Assembly: GCA_018400815.1 (NCBI GenBank)
Contig: JAGYLS010000023.1
Coordinates: forward strand, 1-21,790
Length of the DNA stretch: 21,790 nt
Direction of reading: 5' to 3'
Origin: Candidatus Oleincola secundus
GTDB lineage: Bacteria; Atribacterota; Phoenicimicrobiia; Phoenicimicrobiales; Stramentimicrobiaceae
Part shown: one piece after another, positions 9,339-21,680 of the stretch
Numbering within the stretch: position 1 is the first letter of the stretch
How the letters are laid out: every line of letters begins with the position of its first letter
The notes under the pieces: generated by a model
Told to the model about the DNA's origin: nothing
Seen by the model: the letters and a program-made list of their open reading frames with translations, nothing else
The model's database searches: none
Made by a program: the position numbers and the translations under genes

Positions 9339-9367
9339 TTGACAAAAACAGATTATATTAGTAAAAT
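9339..9367 (+). promoter_or_regulatory. Sigma70/SigA promoter of the ilv-leu operon
   Basis: TTGACA (9339-9344), 17 nt, TAAAAT (9362-9367), immediately upstream of the T-box. Confidence 0.85.
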
Positions 9368-9387
9368 TGCTAAAATTATCATTAAAA

Positions 9388-9623
9388 ATTATGCAGGAAG
9401 CCAGTAGGTAATAATTTGCTGAAGAGAGCCATAAATCGGTGTGAATATGGTAGTAAATGTTACTGAAACTCACTTCCAGCTGATTAAGATATAAAATTTT
9501 AGTAAATTTATTCCAGTATTTTTTTACAATGAGGGTAGAAAATAAGATTTTCTACTGAAATAGGGTGGTAACACGACAAATTCGTCCCTATCTAAATCAA
9601 ATGGTTTAGATAGGGACTTTTTT
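9388..9623 (+). ncRNA. T-box riboswitch, leucine specifier (CUC), transcriptional
   Basis: Stem I is closed by GGAAG(9396-9400)/CTTCC(9473-9477) and has AGTA, AGAGA and GGTGTGAA motifs. Specifier GAAA-CTC-A (CTC 9469-9471). Stem III GTAGAAAAT/ATTTTCTAC (9535-9555). Antiterminator AGGG-TGGTAAC-ACGA..TCGT-CCCT (9562-9589). Confidence 0.93.
9584..9623 (+). terminator. T-box terminator
   Basis: GTCCCTATCTAAATCA-AA-TGGTTTAGATAGGGAC followed by TTTTTT; overlaps the 3' arm of the antiterminator. Confidence 0.92.
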
Positions 9624-9630
9624 ATTATTA

Positions 9631-9761
9631 AGGGAAGTATGCCTAGGGTTCCGTTTTGTATATAAAAGTCTGGACCAAGTGGCATAAAATACGGATATCA
9701 TTAATGCATAATACATTCGTATTACACCGTGGGTAAAAAAGACCCCAGCGGAAGGTTCCTT
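9631..9761 (+). ncRNA. ykkC-motif riboswitch aptamer, subtype 2a (ppGpp-sensing)
   Basis: GGAAG-TATGCC-TAGGGTTCCG...GTCTGGACCAAGT-GGCATA (P1); AATACGGAT/ATTCGTATT (P2); ACACCGTGGGT-AAAAAAG-ACCCCAGCGG (P3); P0 pairing AGGGAA/TTCCTT. Located upstream of ilvB. Confidence 0.88.
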
Positions 9762-9800
9762 GTCTCGAAATAAAAGGACCTGCCTGCGGGGTCTTTTATT
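9737..9800 (+). terminator. Expression-platform terminator of the ykkC/ppGpp riboswitch
   Basis: AAAAGACCCC(9737-9746)/GGGGTCTTTT(9788-9797) with an inner AGGTTCCTT/AAGGACCT stem. It sequesters the 3' half of aptamer P3/P0, so ligand binding should antiterminate. Confidence 0.85.
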
Positions 9801-9854
9801 AAATAAAATTAGAAAGAGTAAATTTCTGATAAAAATTGAAAAGAGGTGAAGAAT

Positions 9855-11540
9855 ATGGAATTAAGCGGAACTGAAATTATTGTTGAATCTCTGAAACAGG
9901 AAAAAGTGAAGGTAATTTTTGGTATAATCGGTGCTGCAATCATGCCTTTATATGATACCTTTGGAAAAACAGGAAAGCTTCCCTTCGAAAACATATTAAC
10001 TAGGCATGAGCAGGGAGCTATTCATGCCGCTGACGGATATGCGAGGGCAACGGGCGAGGTAGGAGTATGTATTGCTACATCAGGTCCGGGAGCAACAAAC
10101 CTGGTTACCGGCCTGGCAAATGCCTATCTGGATTCAGTCCCATTGGTGGCATTTACAGGACAGGTGCCAACTTACATGGTAGGTAATGATGCCTTTCAGG
10201 AAGTTGATATTACCGGAATTACACTTCCTATTACTAAAAATAACTATATAGCCAGAAGAGTAGAAGATTTAGCATCGATTATCAAGGAAGCCTTTTATAT
10301 CGCACGCAGTGGAAGGCCAGGACCTGTATTAATTGATTTACCCAAGGATGTTCAACAGGCCAGATGTCAATTTAAATATCCGGATAAGATAAACAGAAAA
10401 GGCTATAAGCCTTCTTATAAAGGACATGTTAGACAGATCAAAGCAGCAGCAAAAAAAATCATGGAAGCCGAGAAGCCTGTAATTATTGCCGGTGGCGGTA
10501 TCATTAATGCTAATGCTTCAGAGGAATTACAGAAAGTGGCTCTCAAGACAAATATTCCCGTTGTTAATACCTTTATGGGTCTTGGCAGCTTTCCAAAGAA
10601 CCACCCTCTTTCTCTGGGAATGTTGGGAATGTATGGACAGTATGCAGCTAATCAGACAATCAGTAGTGCTGATCTTATTATTGCACTGGGTACACGTTTT
10701 GATGACCGAATTACGGGAAATTTAAAGCAATTTTGTCCCCATGCGGAATTGATTCATATTGATATTGACCCTGTCGAAATAGGGAAAAATATTGCAGTTA
10801 AAATACCCATCGTAGGAGACCTGAAATATATACTGCATCAGTTAAACGATTACCTTGATGAGAGAAAAAATTCGTCATGGCTGATAGAAATCAAGAAAAT
10901 AAGAGAAAAGATTACACCGCAGTTAGAAGAAGAAAAAGGAGAACTGAGACCAAAATATATAATTAAGTGTATTAATGAATTTTTTAAGGGAGAGGCTATA
11001 ATTGTGACTGATGTCGGTCAGCATCAGATGTGGGCAGCCAATTATTGTCAATTTATGCATCCGCGTACTTTCGTTTCCTCAGGCGGTCTGGGTACCATGG
11101 GATATGGATTCCCTGCGGCAATTGGTGCAAAATTTGGGTGTCCCAAAAAGCCGGTAGTTTGTATATCAGGTGACGGAAGTTTTCAGATGAACATTCAGGA
11201 GCTGGCTACGGCAATTTATAACAGGCTACCGATGATTGTAGTGTTAATGAACAATGGATACCTGGGTATGGTGAGGCAATTACAGGAATTATTTTGCGAT
11301 CGACGTTATGTTTCGACTTCTCTAGCAGGGAGTCCGGATTTTATAAAAATTGTTGAAGGTTATGGCGGTGTTGGCTTCAGGGTGAATAAAAAAGAAGAAT
11401 TTTACCCGATTTTAGAGAAAGCTTATGAAATGAACCAATTTGTTCTTATAGACTGTCAGATACCTCAGGAGGAAAATACTTTTCCAATGGTTCAACCAGG
11501 TTCGTCAATCAATAAAATGATGGGAGTTGAGCAATCATGA
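9855..11540 (+). CDS. ilvB: Acetolactate synthase large subunit (biosynthetic)
   Basis: RHEQGAIHAADGYARATG, TSGPGATN, RFDDR, DVGQHQMW, GDGSFQMN..NN (ThDP motif). ATG 9855 with RBS GAGGTG is preferred over GTG 9846. Confidence 0.95.
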   Translation: MELSGTEIIVESLKQEKVKVIFGIIGAAIMPLYDTFGKTGKLPFENILTRHEQGAIHAADGYARATGEVGVCIATSGPGATNLVTGLANAYLDSVPLVAFTGQVPTYMVGNDAFQEVDITGITLPITKNNYIARRVEDLASIIKEAFYIARSGRPGPVLIDLPKDVQQARCQFKYPDKINRKGYKPSYKGHVRQIKAAAKKIMEAEKPVIIAGGGIINANASEELQKVALKTNIPVVNTFMGLGSFPKNHPLSLGMLGMYGQYAANQTISSADLIIALGTRFDDRITGNLKQFCPHAELIHIDIDPVEIGKNIAVKIPIVGDLKYILHQLNDYLDERKNSSWLIEIKKIREKITPQLEEEKGELRPKYIIKCINEFFKGEAIIVTDVGQHQMWAANYCQFMHPRTFVSSGGLGTMGYGFPAAIGAKFGCPKKPVVCISGDGSFQMNIQELATAIYNRLPMIVVLMNNGYLGMVRQLQELFCDRRYVSTSLAGSPDFIKIVEGYGGVGFRVNKKEEFYPILEKAYEMNQFVLIDCQIPQEENTFPMVQPGSSINKMMGVEQS

Positions 11541-12034
11541 AGCATACTATTGCAATTTTAGTAGAAGACCAGCCAGGTGTCATGGCGCGTGTTGCTAGTT
11601 TGTTTACCCGGAGAGGTTTTAATATTGAAAGCATTGCAGTAGGTCATTCTGAAAAAGAGGGTATTTCACGAATGACCATTATTACCAGCGGAGATGAAAA
11701 GGTTTTAGAACAGGTAACCAAACAGTTAAATAAGTTAATCGATGTCATACGCGTTCGGGACATATCTCCCCGGAATGTTATTGAAAGAGAGTTGATTCTG
11801 GTAAAAGTGCATACGGATTCATTGTCAATTCGGGCAGAGATTATTCAATTAGTAGAAATATTTAAAGCCAAAGTTGTCTATGTAGAGCGGGACACTTTGA
11901 CCATTGAAATGTCTGGAGATGAAGAAAAAGTCAGTGGACTTTTAAAGCTTTTAAAGCCATTTGGCATTATTGAAATTGTCCGTACCGGAAGAATTGCAAT
12001 AGCAAGGACTAAAAATAACGGACAACGGACGTAA
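11537..12034 (+). CDS. ilvN: Acetolactate synthase small regulatory subunit
   Basis: ACT domain LVEDQPGVMARVASLFTRRGFNIESIAVG; KQLNKLIDV; EIVRTG. ATGA overlap with ilvB. Confidence 0.95.
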   Translation: MKHTIAILVEDQPGVMARVASLFTRRGFNIESIAVGHSEKEGISRMTIITSGDEKVLEQVTKQLNKLIDVIRVRDISPRNVIERELILVKVHTDSLSIRAEIIQLVEIFKAKVVYVERDTLTIEMSGDEEKVSGLLKLLKPFGIIEIVRTGRIAIARTKNNGQRT

Positions 12035-12110: not shown

Positions 12111-13655
12111 ATGACTGAAAAAATATTTATTTTTGATACAACATTACGTGATGGGGAGCAATGCCCCGGGGCTTCTCTCAATACCAATGAGAAGTTAGAA
12201 ATTGCCAGGTACCTGGAAAAAATGAGAGTAGATGTTATTGAAGCCGGTTTTCCTGTATCTTCTCCTGGTGATTTTGAAGGTGTTGAGATAATTGCTAAAA
12301 ATATTAAGAATACTACCATTACCGGTTTATGCAGGGCAGTTGAAAGGGATATAAAATGTGCCTGGGATGCCATTAAGTCAGCTCAAAAACCCAGGATTCA
12401 TACTTTCATTGCTACCTCACCAATCCATATGAAGCTTAAGCTGGAGAAAACACCTCAGGAGGTTCTTCAACAAGCTGTTTCGGCGGTGAAGCTAGCAAAA
12501 AGTTATTGCCCTGAGGTGGAATTTTCCGCAGAAGATGCCAGTCGCAGCGAACCCCAGTTCCTATACAAAGTTTTTGAAGAGGTCATCAAAGCAGGTGCAA
12601 CCATTGTTAATGTCCCGGATACAGTTGGATATTCACAGCCTGATGAATTCGGCCAACTAATCCAGGGTATTAAGAAAAATGTTCCAAATATCGAACAGGC
12701 AATTATTAGCGTACATTGTCATAATGATTTGGGTATGGCAGTGGCAAATTCGCTGGAATCCTTAAAATTTGGTGTACGGCAAATCGAATGTACAATGAAT
12801 GGTATTGGAGAAAGAGCAGGAAATGCTTCTCTGGAGGAAATTGCCATGGCTTTACATACCAGAGAAGACTTTTATAATAAATCCACTAATATTGATACCC
12901 ACTACATTTATCCAACCAGTAAGCTGGTGAGTCGTCTAACCGGATTTGTTGTTCAACCTAATAAAGCTATTGTGGGGAAGAATGCATTTGCCCATGAAGC
13001 CGGCATTCATCAGGCAGGTATATTAAAAGATACTTCTACTTATGAAATTATGAAGCCACAAACAATTGGTTTGGAAAGCAATCAATTGGTATTAGGTAAA
13101 CATTCTGGTCGCAATGCTTTTAAAAGCCGTTTATTAGAATTAGGTTATGCCTTAGAGAAAGAAAAACTAAATAAATCTTTTGAGCAATTTAAACAACTGG
13201 CTGATAAAAAGAAGGAAATTTATTCTGAGGACCTCGTTGCCCTTATGTCTGAAATATTAGTTGAAGATATAACTGATATTTATGAATTGAAATATTTTCA
13301 TGTAAATACCGGAAACAGTATTTTACCAACTGCAACAGTTAGGTTAAAAAAAGAGGATAAAATTTTTGAAGATGCTGCTTGTGGTGATGGTCCTGTCGAT
13401 GCAGTATTTAACGCTATCGATCGAATCACCGGAGTCAAGGTAAAATTATCTGATTATTATATCAAGGCCTTAACTAGAGGAAAGGATGCACAGGGAGAAG
13501 CCGTAGTTGAAATCAAAGATAACGGAAGATCTTTTGTTGGAAAGAGTATAAGTACCGATACTTTGGAGGCAAGTGTAAAAGCATATCTGAAGGCGATTAA
13601 TAAAATGTTAGTGCAACTCAACAGAGGTTTAGGTTCACAAAAGAAGATAGATTAA
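12111..13655 (+). CDS. leuA: 2-isopropylmalate synthase
   Basis: DTTLRDGEQ, HCHNDLGMA, NGIGERAGN, AHEAGIHQ, LGKHSGR, C-terminal regulatory domain GDGPVDA. RBS AAGGAGG. Confidence 0.95.
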   Translation: MTEKIFIFDTTLRDGEQCPGASLNTNEKLEIARYLEKMRVDVIEAGFPVSSPGDFEGVEIIAKNIKNTTITGLCRAVERDIKCAWDAIKSAQKPRIHTFIATSPIHMKLKLEKTPQEVLQQAVSAVKLAKSYCPEVEFSAEDASRSEPQFLYKVFEEVIKAGATIVNVPDTVGYSQPDEFGQLIQGIKKNVPNIEQAIISVHCHNDLGMAVANSLESLKFGVRQIECTMNGIGERAGNASLEEIAMALHTREDFYNKSTNIDTHYIYPTSKLVSRLTGFVVQPNKAIVGKNAFAHEAGIHQAGILKDTSTYEIMKPQTIGLESNQLVLGKHSGRNAFKSRLLELGYALEKEKLNKSFEQFKQLADKKKEIYSEDLVALMSEILVEDITDIYELKYFHVNTGNSILPTATVRLKKEDKIFEDAACGDGPVDAVFNAIDRITGVKVKLSDYYIKALTRGKDAQGEAVVEIKDNGRSFVGKSISTDTLEASVKAYLKAINKMLVQLNRGLGSQKKID

Positions 13656-13702: not shown

Positions 13703-15280
13703 ATGAAGATAATGTCAATGAATTTAGAAATAATGGATACTACTTTAAGAGATGGAGAACAGATGAAAAATGTTAGCTATTCTCCTGATGAAAAATTGGC
13801 ACTTGCAAAAATATTATTAGATGAAATAAAAGTAGATAGAATTGAGATTACCAGTGCCAAGGTGAGTGTAGGTGAAAAAGAAGCAGTTCGAAAAATAATT
13901 GATTGGGCAAATCAATACAAATATACTCAAAGAGTTGAAATACTGGGTTTTGTAGATATTACCGAATCAGTAGATTGGATTTCTAATTTAGGCGGAAAGG
14001 TAATAAATATTCTGGCCAAAGGATCAATAAATCATTTAACTAATCAGCTAAGAAAAACAAAAGAGCAACATGTCAAAGAAATTAAGGAAACAATATCATA
14101 CGCAGGGAAAAAAGAGATTACTTGCAATCTATGGCTGGAAGATTGGTCTAATGGCATGCTTAATTCTCCGGACTATGTATATTATTTAATAGATAATCTT
14201 GCTGAAGAAAGCATAGAAAGATTTATGTTACCAGATACACTTGGAATTTTGTATCCATCTCAGGTTTATCACTTTTTGAAAAACATTATCAGGAAATATC
14301 CCAAACTGCATTTTGATTTTCATGCTCACAATGATTACGGATTGGCTACTGCTAATACTATATCAGCAGCTGAGGCAGGAATTAAGGGTGTTCATTGTAC
14401 TGTTAACGGTATGGGAGAAAGAGCCGGCAATGCACCCCTGGAAGAAGTTGTCGTAGCACTAAAAGATTTTCTCAATATTGATACAGGTATTGAAGAAAAA
14501 AGTTTATATCATTTGAGTAAGACTGTCGAGGCTTTTTCTACTTATCGTATTGCCTCAAATAAGCCAATTTGTGGAGAAAATGTCTTTACCCAAACTGCAG
14601 GCATTCATGCAGATGGAGATAGAAAAGGCAATCTATATGCCAGCAGGCTTTTACCCGAGAGATTTAACCGTAAGAGGCAATATTCTTTGGGGAAATTAAG
14701 CGGTAAATCCAATTTAGATTATAATTTGGAAGAGATAGGTATTGAACTTTCCAAAGAACAAAAAAAGAATATATTGGACAGGGTTATTGAATTGAGTGAT
14801 AAAAAGAAAACAATTACTAGCTCTGATTTACCTTATATTATATCTGATGTTTTGGAGACTCCTGAAGAAAATACTTTTAAATTAAAAGCATACAATATTT
14901 TAACAAGTCATTCAACAAAACCTGTTGCGGTAATTCAATTGCTCTATAAGGATAAAGAAAATGGCAATACGATTGAATTGGAAGAAATTGCACAGGGTGA
15001 TGGTGGTTATGATGCTTTTATGAATGCCATAAGAAAAATATTCCAGAAAATTGGCCTTAATTTACCAATGCTTATTGATTATAGGGTTAGCATTCCTCCA
15101 GGAGGTAAGACAGATGCATTGGTACAATGTGCTATTACCTGGGAGATAGAGAACAAGCAAAACATTATTACCAAGGGAGTTAATTCTGATCAGGTCTTAG
15201 CTGCCATTGAGGCAACTGAAAAGATGATGAATATTATTGCTTTGATGAAAAAATCTAATAAAAAACCGGCTGATATGTAA
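13703..15280 (+). CDS. cimA: (R)-citramalate synthase, Leptospira/Bacteroidetes-type
   Basis: IMDTTLRDGEQ..VDRIEITSAKVS..EDWSNGM..MLPDTLG..HAHNDY..QTAGIHADGD..IPPGGKTDALV. Start may be 13712 or 13718. Confidence 0.85.
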   Translation: MKIMSMNLEIMDTTLRDGEQMKNVSYSPDEKLALAKILLDEIKVDRIEITSAKVSVGEKEAVRKIIDWANQYKYTQRVEILGFVDITESVDWISNLGGKVINILAKGSINHLTNQLRKTKEQHVKEIKETISYAGKKEITCNLWLEDWSNGMLNSPDYVYYLIDNLAEESIERFMLPDTLGILYPSQVYHFLKNIIRKYPKLHFDFHAHNDYGLATANTISAAEAGIKGVHCTVNGMGERAGNAPLEEVVVALKDFLNIDTGIEEKSLYHLSKTVEAFSTYRIASNKPICGENVFTQTAGIHADGDRKGNLYASRLLPERFNRKRQYSLGKLSGKSNLDYNLEEIGIELSKEQKKNILDRVIELSDKKKTITSSDLPYIISDVLETPEENTFKLKAYNILTSHSTKPVAVIQLLYKDKENGNTIELEEIAQGDGGYDAFMNAIRKIFQKIGLNLPMLIDYRVSIPPGGKTDALVQCAITWEIENKQNIITKGVNSDQVLAAIEATEKMMNIIALMKKSNKKPADM

Positions 15281-15349: not shown

Positions 15350-16612
15350 ATGGGAAAAACAATTGCCGAAAAAATAATACAAAATCACTGTAATAAAAAA
15401 AATATAAAAAAAGGTGATTTAGTAAAAGCAAAGGTAGATTTTGCCTTTGCTAATGACATTACCGGACCCCTGGCTATTGAGGTTTTCAATAAAATAGGTG
15501 TGAAGGAGGTATTTAACCGGGACAAAATTACTTTCATTCCCGATCATTTTACACCGAATAAAGATATAAAATCAGCTGAACAAGCAAAGATTATAAAAGA
15601 ATTTTCAGAAAATCAAATGCTTACCAACTATTTTGAAGTAGGCCAAGGTGGAATCGAACATGCGCTTTTACCTGAAAAAGGGTTTATACTTCCCGGTCAG
15701 TTAATTGTTGGAGCTGATTCTCATACTCCGACATCAGGAGCGTTAGGAGCATTAGCTATTGGTGTGGGCAGTACCGATTTGGGTGTTGTTCTGGCTATGG
15801 GAGAAATATGGTTAAAGGTACCGGAAACAATTAAATTTATTTATAATGGAAAATTGAATAAATGGGTTGGAGGAAAAGACCTAATACTTTATACCATTTC
15901 TAAAATTGGAGTAAATGGTGCCAATTATAAAGTCATGGAATTTAGCGGTGATGTTATTAGTCAACTTTCTATTGATAATCGATTTACTATATGTAATATG
16001 GCCATTGAAGCAGGTGCAAAAAGTGGAGTCATTGAGGCAGATAATGTTGCTTTAGATTATTTAAAAGAGAGAGCAAGGGACCTATTTCAAAAAATTAATA
16101 GTGATTCGGATGCTGAATATGAGCAAACAATAGAATATGATGTAGCCAATATAGAACCACAGGTAGCCTTTCCTCATTTACCTGACAAGGGAAGACCTAT
16201 CAGCGAAGTAGGAGAAGTCAGAATAGATCAATCTGTAATAGGTTCCTGTACCAATGGTCGTATTGAGGATTTAAGAATTGCTGCCCAAATATTAAAAAAT
16301 AACAAGGTTGATTCTAAAATTAGGTTAATTATTCTCCCTGCTACTCAACAGATTTATCTGGATGCCATGGAAGAGGGTTTATTAAAAGTATTTATTGAGG
16401 CAGGAGCAGTCATCAGCCCACCTACATGTGGACCTTGCCTTGGTGGACATATGGGTGTACTGGCAAAAGGAGAAAAGGCAATTTCAACCACCAACCGAAA
16501 TTTTGTTGGCAGAATGGGCCATCCGGAAAGTGAAGTATATTTATCGAACCCGGCAGTAGCAGCAGCTTCGGCTATTACCGGGAAAATATCCAGTCCCGAG
16601 GAGGTAGTATAA
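15350..16612 (+). CDS. leuC: 3-isopropylmalate/citramalate isomerase large subunit (LeuC/HacA/DmdA-type), copy 1
   Basis: DSHT, GSCTNGR, CGPCLG (Fe-S cysteines), [21 protein letters not shown]. Confidence 0.92.
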
Positions 16613-16614
16613 TC

Positions 16615-17112
16615 ATGATTATAAAAGGTAGTATATGGAAATTTGGAGATAATATTGATACCGATGTCATTATCCCTGCTCGCTACTTGAATACATCAGA
16701 CGCGGAAGAGCTAGCATCACATTGCATGGAAGATTATGACCGGGAGTTTATAAAAAAAATGAAGCAGGGAGATATAATTGTTGCCGGAGAAAATTTTGGG
16801 TGTGGCAGTTCCAGAGAACATGCTCCTCTTGCTATTAAAACAGCCGGCATTTCCTGTGTTATTGCTAAGTCTTTCGCTCGAATTTTTTATCGAAATGCCA
16901 TAAATATAGGTTTACCCATCTTTGAGTCTGCTGAAACCTTTGAACAGTCTAAACAGGGAGACATTTTAGAAGTAGACTCTGAAGTAGGAGTTATTAAGAA
17001 TTTTAGTAACAATAAGGAATTTCAAATAAACCCCTTACCTGATTTTATTCGGAGTATTATTTCTGCCGGAGGGTTGGTTGAATATACAAAAAAAGAAGTT
17101 GATAGAAGATAA
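16615..17112 (+). CDS. leuD: 3-isopropylmalate dehydratase small subunit, copy 1
   Basis: [40 protein letters not shown]. Confidence 0.93.
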
Positions 17113-17408: not shown

Positions 17409-19289
17409 ATGAAAAGCAGAATCGCTGTGATGAGTTACTGTAAATTAACAAAGGTAATAAAAAGAACAATTAGTCCCAAAGAGTTAAAAAAATTAACTAT
17501 TATTGAATCGAGTTTTAGCGAAACTAAAGAGATTGCAGTAAATCTTTGGGAAAAGGATAAAGTAGATGTATTTGTATGCGGAAGCAGTAATTTGCAAATG
17601 ATTAAAGAAAATATTCCTGCCCCTATTGTTCCAATAAATATCTCAGGCTTCGATATCATGGATAATTTAATAGAAGCAAAAACAAAGGGAAATGAAATTA
17701 TTATTATCTCCTATAAAAATTATATCGCAAGCAAATTTGCGCACAAGGGAATTTTTAATGTTGATGTAGATGAAAAATGCTATAACAATATTTCTGAATT
17801 AAAATTGATACTGAATAACTTAAAAAAGAAAAATGAGAGTATAGTTATTGGTTCTAGCCTGGTTTGTGATATATGTGATGAAATGGAGATAGATTCCATT
17901 TTAATTTATTCATCAGACAGTATTAAAAACGCAATTAGCCAAGCCATACAGATCCAGGAATCTATTCAAAAAGAAAAATATAAATTGAATCAATTTAATG
18001 CAATCCTGAATTTTACTTATAGTGGAATTATTGCAACTGATAAAAATAACATTATTCGGATATATAATCCTATGGCAGAAAATATCATTGGTATCCCAGG
18101 AAAAAATATCGTAGGAAGAGATGCGAATCATGTTATTGAGAATACACGATTATCGGAAGTATTAATCTCAAAACAACAGGAAATAGATCAGCTGCAAAAA
18201 CTAAATAATCGTGTAGTTTTGACTAGTCGTGTACCAATTCTGGTTGGGGATCAGGTTGAAGGAGTTGTCGCTACATTCCGTGATATAAAATCAATAGAAG
18301 AGTCTGAGCACAAAATAAGAAAACAGTTATATTCAAAGGGTTTAATTTCAAAATATACTTTTGATGATATTAAAGGTGAATCCCAGGCTATCAAGAAATG
18401 TATTGAAATTTCTAAAGAATATGCAAACAGTAATTTTACAATTTTGATAAGTGGTGAATCCGGGACCGGGAAGGAATTATTTGCCCATAGCGTCCATCAT
18501 CAAAGTGAAAGAAGAAGCGAAGCTTTTGTAGCTATTAATTGTGCTGCTCTTCCCAAGAGTCTTTTAGAGTCTGAATTATTTGGCTATGTCGGAGGCGCGT
18601 TTACGGGGGCAAAAAAAGAGGGGAAAATTGGGCTTTTTGAATTAGCCCACAATGGAACGATCCTGTTAGATGAGATTGCTGAAACACCATTGAGTATACA
18701 GTCCCGATTATTGAGGGTTATACAGGAAAAAGAAGTCATGAGGCTGGGAAGTGATCGGGTGATTAAAGTTGATGTAAGAATTATTTCAGCCACAAATAAG
18801 AATCTATGGAAAGAAGTAGTAAGGGGAAACTTTAGAGAGGATTTATATTATCGTCTAAGTGCTCTGGAGTTAAAGATACCCCCACTAAGAGATAGGAGAA
18901 AAGATATTCCGTTTATTTCCAGAGAATTTATCAGGAATCATTTCCAAAATATTTATTATGCTTATCAAAAAAAATGGGAAGAGATATTTACAAATTTACA
19001 GAAATATGAATTTTACGGAAATGTAAGAGAATTATACAATGTCCTAAAAAGGCTGGCAATTCTTATTCAAAAAAGAGAAGAATATTCCGTGCAGGGATTA
19101 ATAGATTTAACCTATGATGAAAAAGAGAAGTTGCTAGCGTCAAAAGCAGGACAAAGAAAGAAAGGCGAAATAGAAGATATTTTAGAGATGTTAAATAGAA
19201 AAGATTGGGATAAAAGTGAAACAGCAAAGGAGTTGGGAATCAGCAGAACAACCCTGTGGAGAAAAATGAAAATATATGGCATAGAATAG
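17409..19289 (+). CDS. Sigma54-dependent enhancer-binding protein, PrpR-like (PrpR_N + PAS + AAA+ + Fis HTH)
   Basis: ISGFDIM N-domain; PAS; Walker A GESGTGKE; GAFTGA; Walker B LLDEI; FREDLYYRL; LGISRTTLWRKMK. Confidence 0.92.
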   Translation: MKSRIAVMSYCKLTKVIKRTISPKELKKLTIIESSFSETKEIAVNLWEKDKVDVFVCGSSNLQMIKENIPAPIVPINISGFDIMDNLIEAKTKGNEIIIISYKNYIASKFAHKGIFNVDVDEKCYNNISELKLILNNLKKKNESIVIGSSLVCDICDEMEIDSILIYSSDSIKNAISQAIQIQESIQKEKYKLNQFNAILNFTYSGIIATDKNNIIRIYNPMAENIIGIPGKNIVGRDANHVIENTRLSEVLISKQQEIDQLQKLNNRVVLTSRVPILVGDQVEGVVATFRDIKSIEESEHKIRKQLYSKGLISKYTFDDIKGESQAIKKCIEISKEYANSNFTILISGESGTGKELFAHSVHHQSERRSEAFVAINCAALPKSLLESELFGYVGGAFTGAKKEGKIGLFELAHNGTILLDEIAETPLSIQSRLLRVIQEKEVMRLGSDRVIKVDVRIISATNKNLWKEVVRGNFREDLYYRLSALELKIPPLRDRRKDIPFISREFIRNHFQNIYYAYQKKWEEIFTNLQKYEFYGNVRELYNVLKRLAILIQKREEYSVQGLIDLTYDEKEKLLASKAGQRKKGEIEDILEMLNRKDWDKSETAKELGISRTTLWRKMKIYGIE

Positions 19290-19315
19290 TTTTATAATAG
19301 AAGTAATTAAAATAT

Positions 19316-19346
19316 TGTTATAATATTATGAAACAATTATGAAACA
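19316..19346 (+). promoter_or_regulatory. Candidate upstream activator sequence
   Basis: Tandem ATTATGAAACA at 19325-19335 and 19336-19346, preceded by the imperfect inverted half-site TGTTATAAT (19316-19324). About 60-90 bp upstream of the -24 box. Confidence 0.55.
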
Positions 19347-19406
19347 TTGCTGTTAAAATTAATATTAAAAACGGGTAAAATATACCAATTCAAGAGTATT
19401 TTTGTT

Positions 19407-19422
19407 TGGCACGTTACTTGCT
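19407..19422 (+). promoter_or_regulatory. Sigma54 (-24/-12) promoter
   Basis: TGGCACG-TTAC-TTGCT; GG at 19408-19409, N10, GC at 19420-19421; matches consensus. Confidence 0.92.
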
Positions 19423-19477
19423 TATTATAATATGTAAATAGAATGAGATTGTATTGAAATATATCAAGGAGAGAACA

Positions 19478-20347
19478 GTGCAAAGAACAAAAAGGCTTAA
19501 AAAATTACTTCAAGCTAAAGAAATACTAGTTGCTCCCGGGGCTTATGATGTCTTTGGTGCTAAGATGATAGAAAAAATTGGATTTAAAACTGTATATATG
19601 ACCGGATATGGTACATCAGCTAGTATTTTGGGAAAGCCGGATGTTGGATTGTTGTCAATGACTGAAATGGCCAAAAGAGCGGGAGATATTGCAAAAGCAG
19701 TAAATGTTCCGGTAATTGCCGATGCTGATACTGGCTATGGAAATCCATTGAATGTAAGAAGAACAGTTATGGAATATGAAAGAGGCGGAGTAGCCGGCAT
19801 ACAGTTGGAAGACCAGGTTTTTCCTAAAAAATGCGGACACATGATGGGGAGAAAAATTATTCCAAAAGAGGAAATGGTTCAAAAGATAAAAGCTGCCTGT
19901 GATATAAGAGAAGATAAGGATTTTGTTATAATTGCCAGGACTGATGCCAGAACAAACTATGGATTAGATGAAGCAATTTCAAGAGGGAAGGCATATCAGG
20001 ATGCAGGAGCAGACCTTATTTTTATTGAATCTCCGGAAAGTATTGAGGAGATGCAGAAAATTAACAGTGAATTCAGCAACATTCCGACTCTGGCTAATAT
20101 GGTAGAAGGTGGCAGAAGCCCGAATTTAACAATTGACGAGTTAGAGAAACTAGGTTTCTCTATTGTAATATTTAGTACAGGACCTTTGTATTCAGCTGCG
20201 AAAGGTGTAAAAGATTATCTGACTGAATTAAAGATAAAAGGAACAACGTCCTCAAGAATCAATAAAATGATTTCTTTTAAAGAATTCAATGAACTGATTG
20301 GATTGCAGGATTATCTTGACCTGGAAAAGAAATACCAGGTTGATTAA
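19478..20347 (+). CDS. ICL/PEP-mutase superfamily lyase (2,3-dimethylmalate lyase / 2-methylisocitrate lyase-like)
   Basis: APGAYD, YMTGYG, IADADTGYG, QLEDQVFPKKCGH, IARTDA, ANMVEGG. GTG 19478 with RBS AAGGAG (19466-19471) is preferred over TTG 19454. Confidence 0.9.
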   Translation: MQRTKRLKKLLQAKEILVAPGAYDVFGAKMIEKIGFKTVYMTGYGTSASILGKPDVGLLSMTEMAKRAGDIAKAVNVPVIADADTGYGNPLNVRRTVMEYERGGVAGIQLEDQVFPKKCGHMMGRKIIPKEEMVQKIKAACDIREDKDFVIIARTDARTNYGLDEAISRGKAYQDAGADLIFIESPESIEEMQKINSEFSNIPTLANMVEGGRSPNLTIDELEKLGFSIVIFSTGPLYSAAKGVKDYLTELKIKGTTSSRINKMISFKEFNELIGLQDYLDLEKKYQVD

Positions 20348-20417
20348 GAAAAATATACAAGGTCTCAAATAGATATAAATATTAATATTTATTAAGAAAG
20401 GAAAGCCAGGGAATAAA

Positions 20418-21680
20418 ATGGGTAAAACATTAGTTGAAAAAATATTAGCAGCCCATACGGATTCTAAAGATTTTAAAATTGGAGATATCATTAATGTAAA
20501 ACTTGATTTTGCTTTCTCCAATGATATCACTGCTCCGTTAGCAATAAAAGTTTTTGAGGAGAGTGGGGCTAAACAAGTATTTGACAGAAAGAGAATCGGT
20601 GTAATTCCTGATCATTTTGCTCCGAATAAAGACATAAAATCGGCCGAACAGTGTAAAATAATGAGAGAATTTGCCAGGAAACATCAAATAGAGAATTACT
20701 TTGAGATTGGAAGAATGGGTATAGAACATGCATTATTGCCGGAGAAAGGATTGGTGCTACCGGGAGATTTGGTTGCAGGATCGGATTCACATACTGATAC
20801 ATCTGGGGCATTAGGTGCATTTGCTATGGGTGTTGGCAGTACTGATATGGCCTTTGCTATGGCAACCGGAGAAATCTGGTTAAAAGTGCCGCCTGTTATT
20901 AAATTTAATTATACCGGGAAATTGAATAAGTGGGTTAGTGGAAAAGATTTAATACTCTATACTATCTCGGAAATCAGTGTTAGTGGCGCAAATTACAAGG
21001 TTATGGAATTTAGTGGAAAAGTTATAAATAACCTGTCAATGGATAATCGTTTTACGATGTGCAATATGGCCATTGAGGCAGGGGCAAAAACGGGAATTAT
21101 CGAGCCAGATGAAAAAACGATACAGTATGTAGAAGGCAGGGCTAAAAGACCCTATCAGGTTTTTAAGAATGACCCGGACGCCAAATATGAAAAGATAATT
21201 AATTATGATGTTAGTAATATTGAACCACAGGTATCTTTCCCACATTCACCTGGAAATGCAAGACCCATCAGTAAAGTTGACAATATAAAAATAGATCAAT
21301 CGATTATTGGCTCTTGTACAAATGGCAGGATAGAGGATTTACGAATTGCCTCAGAAATTTTAAAAGGACATAGCGTTCATCCGGAAGTCAGATTGATTGT
21401 TTTTCCTGCTACTCAAGAAATTTACCGGCAGGCGCTTCAGGAAGGGCTAATTGACACTTTTCTTTCAGCAGGAGCTGCCATAAGCACACCTACCTGCGGT
21501 CCGTGCATAGGAGGGCATATGGGACTTTTGGCTAAAGATGAACGAGCCATATCAACTACAAACAGGAATTTTGTAGGGAGAATGGGTCATCCGGAAAGTG
21601 AAGTATATCTTTCAAATCCCGCTATTGCTGCTGCTTCAGCGATTTTAGGTAGAATTGCTAGTCCTGAGGAGGTGAAATAA
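20418..21680 (+). CDS. LeuC/DmdA-type hydratase/isomerase large subunit, copy 2
   Basis: Same length (420 aa) and colinear with copy 1; GSCTNGR, CGPCIG, STTNRNF. Confidence 0.9.

Follow-up and report, generated by a model that had tools for sequence, protein, structure and literature searches.

A leucine T-box followed by a predicted ppGpp riboswitch upstream of a leucine-citramalate operon in a probable member of the Atribacterota

Organization of the leader and of the downstream operon

The window, i.e. the whole stretch of 21,790 nucleotides analyzed here, carries on its + strand, in this order, a promoter, a T-box, a first terminator, a ykkC-fold aptamer, a second terminator and the genes ilvB, ilvN, leuA, cimA, leuC and leuD. 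The sigma-70 type promoter (TTGACA-17-TAAAAT, positions 9339-9367) agrees with the consensus at 11 of 12 positions, and a promoter with 10-11 of 12 matches stands at the same place in all 14 orthologous leaders. A first-pass annotation of this DNA had recognized a single sigma70 promoter. This is borne out: between it and the aptamer the best site of the window reaches only 8/12, and the internal sites of the orthologues reach at most 9/12 in 13 of 14 leaders and 10/12 in one, at differing positions. Transcription likely starts at an A near 9373-9375. An A as start base has been associated with favoured transcription at falling GTP (PMC6003355), an effect that might add a further layer of control at the ilvB leader. 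The U-tract of the first terminator and the aptamer are separated by 7 nt, and the single promoter is followed by two elements of the ON type, each with a terminator of its own.

Two other kinds of control were considered for this leader and rejected. None of 12 short leader frames has a run of Leu, Ile or Val at a position fitting a leader-peptide attenuator. Translational control was discarded with the ribosome-binding site lying about 45 nt beyond terminator 2. Nine RNA runs share 5-13% of sequence words with the query DNA; T-box depth exceeds aptamer depth in three of four runs, on contigs of related strains that are blind to starts, ends and levels.

The first gene, ilvB (9855-11540, ribosome-binding site at 9842-9848), encodes the large subunit of acetolactate synthase (TIGR00118, 779 bits, over the cut-off), and ilvN (11537-12034; TIGR00119, 202 bits) the small subunit. 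They are followed by leuA for 2-isopropylmalate synthase (12111-13655; TIGR00973, 753 bits, over the cut-off) and by a cimA-like gene for a citramalate synthase of the Leptospira type (13703-15280), which scores 652 bits with NF042433, below the cut-off of 950. The best solved relative of the latter product is the citramalate synthase of L. interrogans (3ble, E 2e-116). The last two genes, leuC and leuD (15350-17112; TIGR02083, 672 bits, and TIGR02084, 265 bits, both over the cut-off), specify isopropylmalate dehydratase. All are on the + strand with gaps of at most 76 nt, none with a terminator-like site, and the six genes are presumably co-transcribed. Neither ilvC nor leuB was found in the host assembly (86% complete). 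The citramalate route might take the place of IlvA: the IlvA model TIGR01127 gave no match over the cut-off in 41 genomes, but many relatives have shorter, strong matches.

After the operon, positions 17409-21680 encode a PrpR-like sigma-54 activator, a PrpB-like lyase or mutase and a second leuC. The same block lies directly after leuA in a relative (locus L177), where it runs into leuD and leuB. The end of the window is also the contig end, and leuB may lie beyond it. Elsewhere, at L236 (G000:C90:872-5850), ilvD is located behind a TRAP transporter with a separate Ile(AUC) T-box and no ppGpp aptamer.

A leucine T-box lacking Stem II

An Rfam scan of the window at the gathering thresholds returned no match, and the T-box and ykkC elements were called by E-value. 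The T-box model RF00230 is matched over its full length (model positions 1-219) at 9382-9592 with 80.2 bits (cut-off 93, E 1e-17), and the Guanidine-I/ykkC model RF00442, also in full, at 9632-9753 with 51.0 bits (cut-off 63, E 4e-8). Both stand far above nine other Rfam matches, of which the next best has an E-value of 0.85. The two elements named in the first pass are thus recovered by covariance models as full-length matches, if not at the thresholds of the database. In the host genome 11 of 14 full-length T-box matches likewise score below 93 bits, so the RF00230 threshold appears strict for this AT-rich lineage.

Stem I (9396-9477), with its AG bulge, distal loop and specifier loop, is supported by RF00230 and by our alignment A2, composed of 17 orthologous and 7 paralogous T-box leaders. 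The specifier is the leucine codon CUC (9469-9471). Stem III with flanking purines (9535-9555) was located by folding and alignment. The antiterminator (9561-9590; RF00230, alignment and fold) carries the bulge UGGU at 9566-9569, complementary to the ACCA end of the tRNA, and its pairing excludes that of the terminator. Specifier, bulge and terminator agree with the first-pass description. In A2, 89.7% of the cells are paired and two-sided changes occur in 22 of 39 pairs, exceeding 500/500 shuffles and all slid controls, with counts inflated by the relatedness of the genomes.

The optional Stem II and IIA/B domain is missing. An AU-rich, degenerate linker (9478-9530) takes its place, and the IIA/B motif CGUUA occurs in 0/17 orthologues versus 7/7 Ile-type paralogues. 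Its loss probably accounts for the low RF00230 score. The Stem II domain has been described as optional, yet important outside glycine T-boxes (PMC7583486).

Leucine specificity is indicated by several observations. CUC is kept in all 17 orthologous rows of A2, and it suits the function of the genes downstream. The same register read in other T-boxes of the genome gives CUC for leuS, AUC for ileS, UUC for pheS and UGG for a trpB-like gene (genes named from their translations). The host genome also encodes a tRNA-Leu(GAG) ending in ACCA, whose discriminator fits the UGGN bulge. The bulge alone does not discriminate among tRNAs, because tRNA-Val also has discriminator A and tRNA-Ile likewise carries it.

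Two observations concern other T-boxes. In the leuS T-box at L104 (G000:C131:16575-16870), Stem III seems to be interrupted by an entire tRNA-like sequence; an Ala tRNA that may be this insert was listed by ARAGORN at matching coordinates. At L103/L117, L107/L118 and L114, a T-box is followed by a second antiterminator-terminator unit that lacks a Stem I of its own, ahead of a transporter substrate-binding gene, a trpB-like gene and carA.

A ykkC aptamer of predicted ppGpp type

The second element (9631-9761) was delimited with RF00442, alignment, folding and comparison by eye with validated aptamers. It comprises a 6-bp P0 (9631-9636/9756-9761), P1 (9638-9686, with G9679-U9680), P2 (9688-9723), the ACAC segment (9724-9727), P3 (9727-9751, with a C9746-A9747 bulge containing no G) and the linker AAGG (9752-9755). 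The equivalents of A5 and G6 are at 9636-9637. The Rfam matches include no separate ppGpp model, and the subtype call rests on comparison with published sequences. A P0 helix and a pyrimidine at position 49 set subtype 2 apart from guanidine-I, and G96 distinguishes PRPP from ppGpp aptamers (PMC6031431). The window aptamer has P0, which spans 4-8 bp in 27/27 leaders scored, and U9680, a pyrimidine and not A, at the position equivalent to C49. Which of C9746 and A9747 corresponds to position 96 is our deduction, and neither is G. ACAC between P2 and P3, the A5/G6 equivalents and a linker of the 4-5 nt (A)NARG form are present as well, and the genes are of branched-chain amino-acid synthesis in a ppGpp-producing host. 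The first pass had argued from P0 and P3 for ppGpp over PRPP or guanidine, and these comparisons point the same way.

All the features listed for measured ppGpp binders are present in the window aptamer, and its linker conforms to NAGG, a motif correlated with a preference for ppGpp rather than pppGpp (PMC9881157). Compared by eye, its P3 is almost identical to the P3 of the validated aptamers from T. oceani, D. hafniense and P. fermentans (PMC6003355, supplement). It departs from most binders in having U where they have C after the G48 equivalent, a U also found in the binders C13 and C43 (PMC9881157). In the same screen, binding was poor or lacking for 5 of 30 subtype 2a candidates, and the screen values of its Table S1 cover none of the JS1-type rows discussed below. 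We consider the assignment to the ppGpp (subtype 2a) class to be supported as a prediction.

Among 61 distinct ykkC-like sequences in the loci examined, the 36 with a P3 of the window type were aligned, and the 25 of a second clade were left out. In this alignment 99.0% of the cells are paired and two-sided changes occur in 11 of 30 pairs (0/500 shuffles; slid controls 30-47%), counts that the relatedness of the genomes again inflates.

Two terminators and a putative two-input gate

Terminator 1 (9584-9623, + strand) consists of a 15-bp stem (9584-9617) and six U, and is exclusive with the antiterminator. Its fold has a z-score of -6.4 and beats 200/200 shuffles; the computed energy is -26.6 kcal/mol versus -13.2 kcal/mol for the antiterminator. 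Terminator 2 (about 9737-9801, + strand) is a long hairpin that takes up the P3/P0 3' strand and ends in the tail UUUUAUUA. Its region has a z-score of -4.1, with 0/200 shuffles as good, which is in line with the complete aptamer and overlapping second terminator seen in the first pass. The terminator form is computed at -51.9 kcal/mol and the aptamer form at -46.3 kcal/mol, a gap of 5.6 kcal/mol. According to these models the terminators are the default folds at both stages. A hairpin capturing the P3/P0 strand and then a U-rich tail were found in 36/36 aptamers folded.

In this reading, a single mRNA would carry two transcriptional ON switches, one after the other and independent of each other. 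In the default state, transcription would be halted at terminator 1. With uncharged tRNA-Leu(GAG), the anticodon would pair with CUC and the ACCA end with UGGU, the antiterminator would be held and the polymerase would pass. The aptamer would then be made; without ligand its P3/P0 3' strand would be drawn into terminator 2, and with ppGpp bound at the four-way junction P0 and P3 would be held, allowing read-through into ilvBN-leuA-cimA-leuCD. An end helix held by ppGpp against a terminator has been described (PMC10687018). Operon output would approximate "Leu-starved AND ppGpp-high". The two inputs would be coupled, since uncharged tRNA-Leu also activates Rel, and the gate should chiefly filter out ppGpp from other starvations, and Leu limitation too mild to reach the stringent threshold. 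Rel is represented in the host genome by an intact 685-aa match over the cut-off with hydrolase, synthetase, TGS and ACT domains, and by matches over the cut-off in 40/41 genomes.

That the leader is a leucine T-box and a ppGpp riboswitch acting serially as ON switches with an AND-like output is, in our opinion, very probable. The first-pass proposal that read-through requires uncharged tRNA-Leu as well as ppGpp can be maintained as a prediction from sequence, conservation and the literature. The gate may be leaky, since terminator 2 has an interrupted tail and the comparable riboswitch of D. hafniense shows substantial ligand-free read-through in vitro (PMC6003355).

Host lineage and distribution of the tandem

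Among the matches listed for IlvB, the closest named relatives, at 75% and 65%, are two records from Atribacterota, and the remaining 78 are at 55% or less; the same tandem leader is present in the 75% relative. The host, an uncultured bacterium of sediment type, is most likely a member of the Atribacterota (JS1) and not a Firmicute. In the host order, 37 of 52 genomes have the tandem pattern, at 48 places altogether, against 0/34 genomes in the rest of the phylum; many of the genomes are incomplete, so that a missing tandem does not equal true absence. A control pattern with reversed order had no match in the same genomes. Matches to the ykkC model occur in 45/86 genomes, all inside the host order.

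The CodY profile PF06018 matched nothing in 41 genomes in which control profiles did match. Control of the leader by CodY was discarded on this result and on the best CodY-box match having 5 mismatches.

Isoleucine-specific twins and losses of the aptamer

The host family has 26 tandem places, namely 14 Leu(CUC) leaders like that of the window and 12 leaders before a paralogous ilvB. Stem I is readable in 10 of these 12 and always shows, in the same register, the isoleucine specifier AUC; one of the remaining two is cut but shows AUC, and the other is unreadable. On the same contig ilvC lies downstream at 10 of the 12 places. Paralogous ilvB2-ilvN2-ilvC operons under an Ile(AUC) T-box and a ppGpp-type aptamer are found in the same family at L179 (1080-4984), L190, L195, L225, L227, L127, L145, L150, L158 and L226. 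Nine genomes hold both Leu and Ile gates. In the host genome and a congener, neither the ilvB2 operon nor ilvC was found.

Among 19 loci of relatives, the aptamer is deleted and the T-box kept in three (L012, L018, L019), and the aptamer is decayed in two (L015, L016). In four of these five genomes the paralogous ilvB leader is also without aptamer. L015 and L016 further have a palindromic GC-rich repeat inserted in the T-box linker.

Those specifiers of the sister family that could be read are CUC, which overlaps with AUC in a lengthened loop. At L020, L137, L157 and L171 the loop reads AUCUC, with Ile and Leu codons overlapping; these T-boxes have full Stem II and IIA/B and are placed ahead of one merged ilv-leu operon.

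Aptamers of ppGpp type also occur without an adjoining T-box, in the ilvD/ilvB interval (L184), before an amidohydrolase-like gene (L125) and before proC (L154), and a tandem lies ahead of an amidohydrolase-like gene at L231. A second ykkC-like aptamer of the host genome (L101:1501-1616, G000:C156:4741-4856) precedes genes for a BrnQ-like transporter and a beta-lactamase-fold protein, proC and an aminotransferase gene. It has C at the 49 equivalent, a U-rich P3 like the published natA-type rows C94, C101 and C103, and two G in the P3 bulge, and may thus be of either the ppGpp or the PRPP type. The second ykkC clade, of which it is part (25 sequences; L129, L133, L145, L147, L158, L184 and others), lies before a GAF-ANTAR gene or glutamate dehydrogenase, and also before amino-acid transporters, and at L184 the locus continues with a synthase, aconitase and isocitrate dehydrogenase. 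These contexts would point to a broader (p)ppGpp regulon that takes in glutamate synthesis.

Comparison with published tandem riboswitches

A leucine T box adjoins about 40% of the ppGpp riboswitches on branched-chain genes, an arrangement termed AND gate (Sherlock 2018, PMC6003355). Table 2 of a later paper (Sherlock 2022, PMC9481103) has 16 tandems in the order T box(Leu) to ppGpp and 15 in the reversed order, with the logic worded as prediction, and the same gate is shown in PMC5912903. The window leader shares with the published T box(Leu) to ppGpp gate the two elements, their order, separate expression platforms, branched-chain genes and the Leu specifier. It is a further example of a known tandem whose mechanism itself has already been described, as the first pass had acknowledged. 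In contrast to the published Firmicutes gates, the host is Atribacterota-like and the T-box lacks Stem II, and relatives have an Ile-specific twin. The published carriers typically have codY, whereas no CodY was found in the 41 genomes analyzed here. An Ile(AUC)/ppGpp gate is absent from the table of tandem gates in PMC9481103, and no report of such a tandem was found in literature titles and abstract openings; published alignments may already include Ile specifiers.

With the validated 2a aptamers of T. oceani and D. hafniense (ilvE) and P. fermentans (glxB), the window aptamer has in common the P0-P3 fold, ACAC, a non-G P3 bulge, the NARG linker and a terminator overlapping P3/P0, and it differs from them in the U after the G48 equivalent. 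The PRPP riboswitch (2b) and Guanidine-I (subtype 1, RF00442) have the same overall fold, with P0 also in 2b. However, the window aptamer has neither the G96 nor the purine-synthesis context of 2b, and it departs from Guanidine-I by its 51 bits (cut-off 63), U instead of adenosine at 49, the presence of P0 and the lack of a guanidine export context.

The first pass had seen possible novelty in a non-Firmicute host and in the gating of a citramalate-containing operon. The host is indeed most likely non-Firmicute, but aptamers of JS1 are already present among the 105 subtype 2a candidates of PMC9881157 (Table S1), as C5, C6 and C49, whose accessions are listed as JS1 Atribacteria single-cell genomes (PMC6281690). 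The metagenomic rows C50, C58, C60, C62 and C63 resemble them. By eye, the aptamers at L156 and L137, in two genomes of the host order, read the same as C6 and C49, a match that locates the lineage. The three JS1 rows appear to have the same P1 arms, U and P3 as the window aptamer, but their linker is the 5-nt AUAGG and their P0 pairs GGGA with UCCC, unlike the AAGG linker and 6-8 bp P0 of the window clade. They bear no species, gene or T-box label in Table S1, and the lineage apparently is in the published data but unremarked, the paper texts naming only Firmicutes. Literature searches found no riboswitch or T-box riboswitch report for Atribacter; published alignments may already name JS1 hosts. 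As for the citramalate operon, the suggestion is weak as well: five of the 105 candidates (C22, C34, C66, C68, C72) are entered with cimA as their gene in the same Table S1. What looks unreported is the Ile(AUC) T-box/ppGpp gate on ilvBNC, the lack of CodY in 41 genomes, the aptamer losses and the T-box without Stem II.

Alternative readings of the leader

The T-box could be the working switch and the aptamer stage leaky or dispensable, leaving a leucine sensor with modest ppGpp tuning instead of a true AND gate. The loss or decay of the aptamer at five of 19 relatives' loci, the interrupted tail of terminator 2, the small energy gap at this stage and the high ligand-free read-through in D. 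hafniense (PMC6003355) would all be accommodated. We nevertheless regard this as rather unlikely: the aptamers that remain have an almost unchanging core, and the anti-aptamer hairpin is kept in 36/36 cases, which argues for selection on switching. In the opposite case the T-box, being without Stem II, would no longer read tRNA and ppGpp would be the sole control, or it would read another tRNA. The unconserved Stem II and IIA/B in 17/17 orthologues and the score under the cut-off could be taken this way, but CUC is invariant in the same 17 leaders, Stem I covaries, the antiterminator is invariant and some relatives retain this T-box alone. The operon would moreover be silent without antitermination, because terminator 1 is strong, and such a dead or misread T-box is highly improbable.

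The identity of the second ligand could also be questioned. A single nucleotide can separate 2a from 2b (PMC9881157), the window has U and not C after the G48 equivalent, and the sole Rfam aptamer match is Guanidine-I; the element might then be another ykkC subtype (PRPP, ADP/CDP, guanidine) or a variant for a different nucleotide ligand. The P3 bulge, however, lacks the G96 needed for PRPP, a pyrimidine stands where guanidine-I has A, P0 is present, the genes are of branched-chain metabolism and JS1 aptamers of nearly the same sequence had been assigned to 2a in the original work. A ligand other than ppGpp seems quite improbable, and the leucine T-box in series with a ppGpp riboswitch is the reading that we retain.

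Significance for the branched-chain stringent response

On balance, though with limited confidence, we favour the view that in JS1 Atribacterota the branched-chain amino-acid stringent response dispenses with CodY and depends entirely on RNA logic. The leucine-citramalate operon would be governed by the Leu(CUC)/ppGpp gate with its Stem II-less T-box. In relatives, ilvBN-ilvC would be under a copy of the gate whose specificity a single base change has shifted to Ile(AUC)/ppGpp. The present survey makes explicit that the system is fixed in a non-Firmicute order without CodY found, and the 48 tandem T-box/ppGpp-type leaders from 37 genomes add to the 31 published. If the second ykkC clade, found ahead of genes for glutamate synthesis and amino-acid transport, truly belongs to it, the regulon would be wider. 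The AND logic was put forward as a prediction in 2018 and still had that status in 2022; the compact Leu and Ile leaders, together with the natural losses, constitute convenient material to test it. The lineages in which the aptamer was kept or lost offer a natural series on what the second input buys.
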